DNA of 34,472 nucleotides from a virus. Shown piece after piece: positions 10,770-10,788 of this stretch (position 1 is the first letter of the stretch; each line of letters opens with the position of its first letter). Under the pieces are notes generated by a model. It had not been told where the DNA came from. It saw only the letters and a program-made list of their open reading frames with translations, and did not search any database. The DNA lies in UHGV virus genome UHGV-0176895. One strand, given 5' to 3'. The translations under genes were made by a program, and so were the position numbers.

Positions 10770-10788
10770 GGCGTGGCGGGGATACGAG
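10770..10788. other. cos-like site: GGCGTGGCGGGGATACGAG, resembling the 19-nt cohesive ends of P2/186
   Basis: The first 13 nt match my recollection of the 186/P2 cohesive-end sequence (GGCG(T/A)GGCGGGGA...). It lies between the early/SOS module and the packaging genes, as expected. Confidence 0.45.

Follow-up and report, generated by a model that had tools for sequence, protein, structure and literature searches.

Introduction

Phages P2 and 186 have 19-nt 5' cohesive ends that have been defined experimentally. In lambda, the cos region (cosN/cosB/cosQ) is cut by a sequence-specific terminase, which introduces staggered nicks to leave 5' cohesive ends and has accessory recognition DNA on one side of the cut. 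The locus analysed here is predicted to follow the same general plan of staggered-nick 5' cohesive ends with one-sided recognition DNA, but the lambda overhang measures 12 nt, the sequences are unrelated and the lambda terminase uses a different small subunit. P2 and 186 are closer, carrying the Q/W portal gene on one side of cos and tum/orf97 or old/tin on the other.

Dodd and Egan (1996) reportedly dealt with retrons Ec67 and Ec86 in 186-related prophages, and a hotspot between cos and Q has been known since the 1990s. Nakayama (1999) is among the works that refer to the cosL–Q interval as a hotspot for foreign genes, and the phiRSY1 paper explicitly gives cosL–gpQ this name; in phiRSY1/phiCTX-type phages, extra ORFs (T6SS Vgr-like and others) lie between cosL and the gpQ homolog. 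In 18,150 E. coli loci, Rousset et al. (2022) counted 1,650 arrangements of the cos-proximal gpA–gpQ region, which they described as a defence hotspot; they reported that the P4 hotspot abuts cos too, and speculated that cos ends promote recombination at the hotspot. A survey published in 2026 confirmed the gpA–gpQ hotspot and also described a minor P2 hotspot flanked by the integrase and CI repressor genes.

Organisation of the prophage

The window, i.e. the whole 34,472-nt stretch of DNA analysed (UHGV virus genome UHGV-0176895), is a Fels-2-type prophage of the P2 family (Peduoviridae). The genes that define its layout are the following:

691–1743, − strand: integrase
3524–4120, − strand: CI-type repressor
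7566–9980: replication gene A
10260–10565, + strand: DinI/Tum-like gene (Pfam DinI, 1.3e-22; 186 tum is annotated at the same position)
12282–13310, − strand: portal gene, homolog of P2 Q and 186 W (Pfam Phage_portal)
13307–15262, − strand: large terminase, homolog of P2 gpP (Pfam Terminase_5, Terminase_6N and Terminase_6C); the ORF is listed from its earliest start, and translation probably begins further downstream
17161–17811, + strand: small terminase M, homolog of P2 gpM (Pfam Phage_term_smal, 1.7e-40)

The portal protein exhibits 62–63% identity with P2 Q and 186 W, and 62–89% identity when the Q proteins of P2, 186, Fels-2, SEN8 and Cartapus are considered together. Beyond P, the order continues with rightward head genes, including M, and then the tail genes. 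The element thus encodes, according to its Pfam matches, a cognate gpM/gpP-type terminase together with the cos site described below. On the right-end side of cos, the DinI/Tum-like gene is the last gene and, apart from a small ORF, nothing more is found there; cargo of the old/tin type is absent from this side.

Three further features of the window were observed. A LexA box matching the consensus perfectly, CTGTAAATATAAACAG, is situated at positions 10075–10090, 5' of the small ORF and the DinI/Tum-like gene. A single match of this kind is statistically unremarkable, with at least one found in 37 of 100 shuffles; the arrangement nevertheless recalls that of the 186 p95-tum operon, which is under SOS control, and by this analogy it suggests an SOS-inducible derepression of the prophage. 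Secondly, the integrase and CI repressor genes are separated by a low-GC ORF of 558 aa (1827–3503, − strand), which encodes a strong homolog of PD-Lambda-1 (PADLOC, 1e-119; Pfam DUF4041 and T5orf172/MUG113) and is a second accessory or defence gene in the different, minor P2 hotspot. Lastly, a 15-nt perfect inverted repeat, TTGGTTTGGGAGAAG, is present at 24595–24609 and 26415–26429 with a spacing of 1805 nt. One of its arms falls inside a tail-fibre gene, the repeat flanks an inverted tail-fibre-assembly gene (25644–26159, − strand), and the segment is adjoined by a serine invertase gene (Resolvase and HTH_7; 27096–27656), so that it is probably an invertible host-range segment of the Gin/Cin type.

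Identification of the cos site

An earlier note on this DNA had proposed that a 19-nt sequence preceding a 454-aa cargo gene resembles the cohesive end of P2 and 186. The sequence and its surroundings comprise:

10640–10740, + strand: conserved region to the right-end side of cos in which (G)TGCAT/GCATGA motifs recur, a candidate accessory terminase-binding region
10700–10724, + strand: GC-rich hairpin with a T-run, GGCCCGCCAGAACTGGCGGGCTTTT, terminator-like, at the end of the DinI/Tum operon
10741–10795, + strand: 55-bp cos core (−29 to +26 around the top-strand nick), equivalent of the sole block common to P2 and P4
10763–10769, + strand: left nick flank GCGAGCA, forming one half of an imperfect dyad with 10789–10795
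10770–10788, + strand: predicted 19-nt 5' cohesive-end sequence GGCGTGGCGGGGATACGAG, of Fels-2/SEN8 type
10789–10795, + strand: right nick flank CGCGCGC, where conservation ends and the variable cargo region follows

Using as references the cohesive ends annotated as features in the P2 and 186 genome records, the 19-mer matched P2 cosL (GGCGAGGCGGGGAAAGCAC) at 14 of 19 positions and 186 cos (GGCGTGGCGGGGAAAGCAT) at 15 of 19, the first 13 bases being identical to those of 186; the match with P4 was also 14/19. The 19-mer is identical throughout (19/19) in Fels-2 (NC_010463) and in SEN8, whose record (KT630647) starts exactly at this sequence, annotated there as a 'putative cos site'. The SEN8 genome announcement likewise gives exactly this 19-mer as the cos site, assigned by annotation, and states that the DNA was prepared from phage particles. 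In the Cartapus record, the equivalent of window positions 10738–10796 is annotated as a cos site. Fels-2 and SEN8 share with the window not only the 19-mer and the CGCGCGC that follows it but also the position between DinI and the portal gene.

To delimit the core, the circular junctions of P2, 186 and P4 were rebuilt from the ends of their records. P2 and P4 agree at 52 of 55 positions from −29 to +26 and are diverged outside this block, which agrees with the '55-bp core' of cos that several papers credit to Ziermann and Calendar (1990). The alignment with the P2 and 186 cos regions extends the resemblance proposed in the earlier note over this whole core, where the window is identical at 41 of 55 positions to P2, 43 to 186, 42 to P4 and 53 to Fels-2. 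In addition, 80 loci with a Q homolog were collected from bacterial contigs, taking one genome per species, and cos, A and Q were located in each; a cos was found in 60 of them.

With only 14–15 of 19 bases matching P2/186, a chance similarity between GC-rich sequences with no packaging role could be considered. The alignment and the survey lead us to reject it, and we regard its probability as negligible. When the shared positions were combined into an extended pattern, GGCGWGGCGGGGANANNNNNGCGCGC, the window contained a single match; 100 dinucleotide-preserving shuffles contained none, even when two mismatches were allowed. Moreover, the homology covers 55 bp as well as blocks further upstream, the position from DinI/Tum to Q is that of 186, and the site is found at the same place in 60 P2-like prophages. 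In the window, this place lies between A with the DinI/Tum-like gene and the leftward Q–P head operon. At the level of sequence analysis, homology, position and the associated terminase genes identify 10770–10788 as a cos of the P2 family.

Conservation around the predicted nicks

The per-column information content, calculated from the window and 59 other loci, is high from approximately −34 to +26 and essentially zero from +27 onwards. Within the core, conservation peaks in columns that include both nick flanks and is lowest at overhang positions +13 to +19. The flanks GCGRGCR (left) and YGCGCGC (right), also shared by P2 and 186, are nearly invariant and keep the same 19-nt spacing in all lineages. 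P2 and 186 continue after the 19-mer with TGCGCGC and the window with CGCGCGC, the C at +20 being present in P4 too. When the left flank GCGAGCA is compared with the reverse complement of the right flank, GCGCGCG, an imperfect dyad becomes apparent, which we infer to be a mark of symmetric nicking.

This conservation bears on whether a real cos in the window might be cut at positions other than those of P2, giving a shorter or shifted overhang. The overhang has diverged (ATACGAG versus AAAGCAC) in precisely the least conserved columns of the core, and our search of the literature found no experimental end-mapping of a cos of the ATACGAG type. We nonetheless consider a displaced cut very improbable, given that the near-invariant flanks of both inferred nicks, their imperfect dyad and their constant spacing would be difficult to reconcile with it. 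The conserved flanks support, but do not prove, the same 19-nt stagger in the lineage of the window; for the bottom strand, the nick position proposed in this variant is extrapolated from P2/186, because the window overhang differs from theirs within positions 13–19 (at positions 14, 16, 17 and 19).

Among the surveyed loci (L008–L087), overhang positions 13–19 were also observed to track the portal lineage. Loci with ATACGAG, CTACGAG or GTACGAG followed by C encode a Q that is >75% identical to that of the window, and those with ATAGCAT, AAAGCAT or AAAGCAC followed by T encode a Q that is ~65% identical. This covariation suggests either co-evolution of cos with terminase specificity or simply shared descent.

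To the left of the core, conserved (G)TGCAT/GCATGA blocks are present in the window, Fels-2, P2 and 186, and also across the 60 sequences. The four TGCAT/ATGCA motifs contained in 10640–10769 place this segment in the top 0.05% of 130-bp windows, and the cluster of TGCAT/ATGCA and GCATGA motifs may represent binding sites for the terminase small subunit or for a host factor. Within the same region, the columns of the hairpin at 10700–10724 are partly conserved across loci and its position is like that of t95b of 186; a consensus terminator scan did not flag it.

A cargo slot between cos and Q

The elements on the other side of the core are as follows:

10796–10872, + strand: start of the variable region, the cargo leader, without homology to other P2-like phages
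10873–12237, + strand: cargo gene, an ORF of 454 aa with ~36% GC, reading away from cos and convergent with Q
12257–12275, no strand assigned: bidirectional intrinsic terminator that separates cargo from the convergent Q gene and ends the slot

The distance of 85 bp given in the earlier note is essentially right, since the ATG of the cargo gene, at 10873, follows the 19-mer after 84 nt, and the gene does lie, as stated there, between cos and Q. In phage records and in 1229 of 5426 complete E. coli genomes, the matching stretch ends at window positions ~10795–10803. Together with the loss of conservation from +27, this indicates that the slot begins directly after the cos core. The sequence of the window diverges completely from those of Fels-2 and SEN8 at the same point. 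At the opposite end, the terminator at 12257–12275 is the positional equivalent of the annotated P2 tQ and 186 tW. The GC content over the 454-aa ORF is ~36–38%, versus 55–60% in the head genes.

P2 and 186 differ from the window in that only ~165–190 bp, with no gene, lie between cos and the Q/W terminator, and their accessory genes (old and tin; orf97) are on the other side of cos. By setting the cargo apart from the old/tin side, the earlier note implied that this arrangement was unusual. The survey rules this out: of the 60 loci with a cos, 8 had <300 bp between cos and Q, i.e. the P2/186 state, one had 575 bp, and the remaining 51 had 800 bp or more, with a median of 1807 bp compared with 1494 bp in the window. 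Although the sampling favours relatives of the window Q, the 186- and P2-type lineages it includes (Q ~65% identical) follow the same pattern. A was located as well in 50 of these loci, of which 21 had extra DNA on the Q side only, 20 on both sides, 7 on the A side only and 2 on neither. The intervals between cos and Q hold substantial ORFs, mostly on the + strand and reading away from cos, as in the window. The old standing of this hotspot in the literature also speaks against the arrangement being unusual; a cargo gene adjacent to cos is an ordinary and already described layout in the P2 family.

Fels-2 and SEN8 carry, between cos and portal, unrelated accessory genes that differ from the cargo of the window, namely STM2723.1 (565 aa) in Fels-2 and two genes, one of them for an HNH endonuclease, in SEN8; Cartapus carries a gene for a DUF4145 protein. 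The Ec67/Ec86 retron and phiRSY1/phiCTX cases are like the window in that foreign DNA reportedly replaces the stretch from cos to the head-gene terminator, and unlike it in their cargo, which consists of retron RT, T6SS Vgr-like and other ORFs. P4 shares with the window the core and accessory genes placed directly to the right of cos in the same orientation, with gop starting 247 bp into the genome; P4 is, however, a satellite without terminase or portal genes, and its slot lies between cos and the integrase instead of Q. The window itself shows the features of the gpA–gpQ hotspot, i.e. a variable low-GC gene with conserved phage DNA on both sides, whose product, WP_089647510, appears in the locus table of Rousset et al. 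(2022).

The cargo gene and its product

The cargo protein is 100% identical to WP_089647510, which is listed as 'hypothetical' in the hotspot locus table (Table S5) of Rousset et al. (2022). Its N-terminal half is helical, with coiled-coil character, and is followed by two hydrophobic helices (~aa 276–296 and 314–338), predicted to be transmembrane, and by a highly conserved C-terminal segment. The exact cargo sequence was found on 189 contigs. Among the 5426 complete E. coli genomes, the gene is present in one, that of NCTC 13148, where the prophage has an extra gene of 141 aa on the other side of cos. Homologs with 57–65% amino acid identity are situated ~110 bp to the right of cos in prophages of Klebsiella and Pantoea, and the cargo gene and its homologs are always solitary in the slot.

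Two side observations concern individual copies. In NCTC 13148 (NZ_OZ510750; L088, 3946–5564), the portal gene is interrupted by IS1B, and this copy of the prophage is therefore defective. In Pectobacterium (CP032619; L091, 4001–5389), a homolog with 60% identity was located outside any P2-like phage, in an island with an adjacent tyrosine integrase gene, a DUF3800 gene and a UvrD_C-fragment gene, which indicates that the cargo family moves between different mobile elements.

Searches of Pfam and NCBIfam assigned the protein to no family, and PADLOC returned only weak matches of coiled-coil type, the best of them (5e-6) to the coiled-coil region of LmuB. In PHROGs it belongs to phrog_34659 (2.8e-86), a family of unknown function, and a profile search of the PDB gave nothing below E = 0.01. 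The AlphaFold2 model built from a 30-sequence alignment is all-helical with low global confidence (pLDDT 70.8, pTM 0.32), and a Foldseek search of this low-confidence model against the PDB yielded no match at E ≤ 0.001. PADLOC, Pfam, NCBIfam and the PDB, the last searched by sequence and by fold, thus revealed no demonstrated or recognisable anti-phage function. In the cargo leader (10796–10872) a consensus scan detected no promoter, and alignment of the leaders of four homologous cargo loci showed no conserved promoter element. Considering the other occupants of the slot and the address of the gene, our best guess is that the most likely role of the cargo would be superinfection exclusion or anti-phage defence.

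Proposed model of packaging and cargo carriage

We consider it highly probable that the site is a functional prophage cos, whose core and left flank would be recognised by gpM/gpP with nicks 19 nt apart, and that the DNA from +27 to the Q terminator is a dispensable cargo slot. In this model, the terminase formed by gpM (small) and gpP (large) would recognise the ~55-bp core and the TGCAT-rich DNA to its left. With the top-strand nick placed just before G10770 and the bottom-strand nick just after G10788, it would produce 19-nt 5' overhangs of GGCGTGGCGGGGATACGAG. These cleavage positions, as well as the terminase-binding role of the left flank, are inferred. The family-conserved sequence ends at +26, leaving the DNA from +27 to the terminator behind Q free to vary as a cargo slot, filled in the window by a single low-GC gene whose transcription runs from cos towards the oppositely oriented Q. 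Virion DNA would accordingly start, at its conventional left end, with the 19-nt overhang followed by 84 bp and the cargo as first gene; in the circular or integrated genome, the same gene lies inside the gpA–gpQ cos-proximal hotspot. The claim of the earlier note that the cargo gene sits at the left end of packaged DNA holds as far as sequence analysis goes, a cut at cos as in P2 being assumed.

A competing explanation is that the prophage is defective and the site a cos relic that has ceased to be cut or packaged, in which case a 'left end' would have no physical meaning. The right prophage end (ogr/attR) lies outside the window, and IS1 sits in the portal gene of NCTC 13148, the one complete E. 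coli genome that shares the cargo, which indicates that such prophages decay. In the window, by contrast, int, CI, A, Q, P, O, N, M and the tail genes are all uninterrupted ORFs, the core is nearly that of Fels-2, and the 19-mer is identical to that of SEN8, a phage whose DNA came from particles. The conservation of the core across 60 species further argues for purifying selection, and we judge a relic to be improbable. That the start of the variable region at +27 across the loci and the orientation of most cargo genes, reading away from cos, reflect a mechanism, an idea on which Rousset et al. (2022) speculated, and not merely constraint appears doubtful; the observations are equally well explained by purifying selection on the core. 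The reading that we favour is hence a cos still in use, beside which a stretch of DNA is free to vary.

As a discovery, the site carries little weight, for a packaging signal of this kind is to be expected in a Fels-2-like prophage, and the cargo is in the standard position. For annotation, it provides predicted ends of the virion genome, G10770 on the left and G10788 on the right. WP_089647510, a solitary, widely distributed and uncharacterised hotspot gene, is worth adding to anti-phage screens. For Fels-2-type phages in general, a conserved cos that ends at +26 throughout the family aids the design of cosmids and transducing particles.
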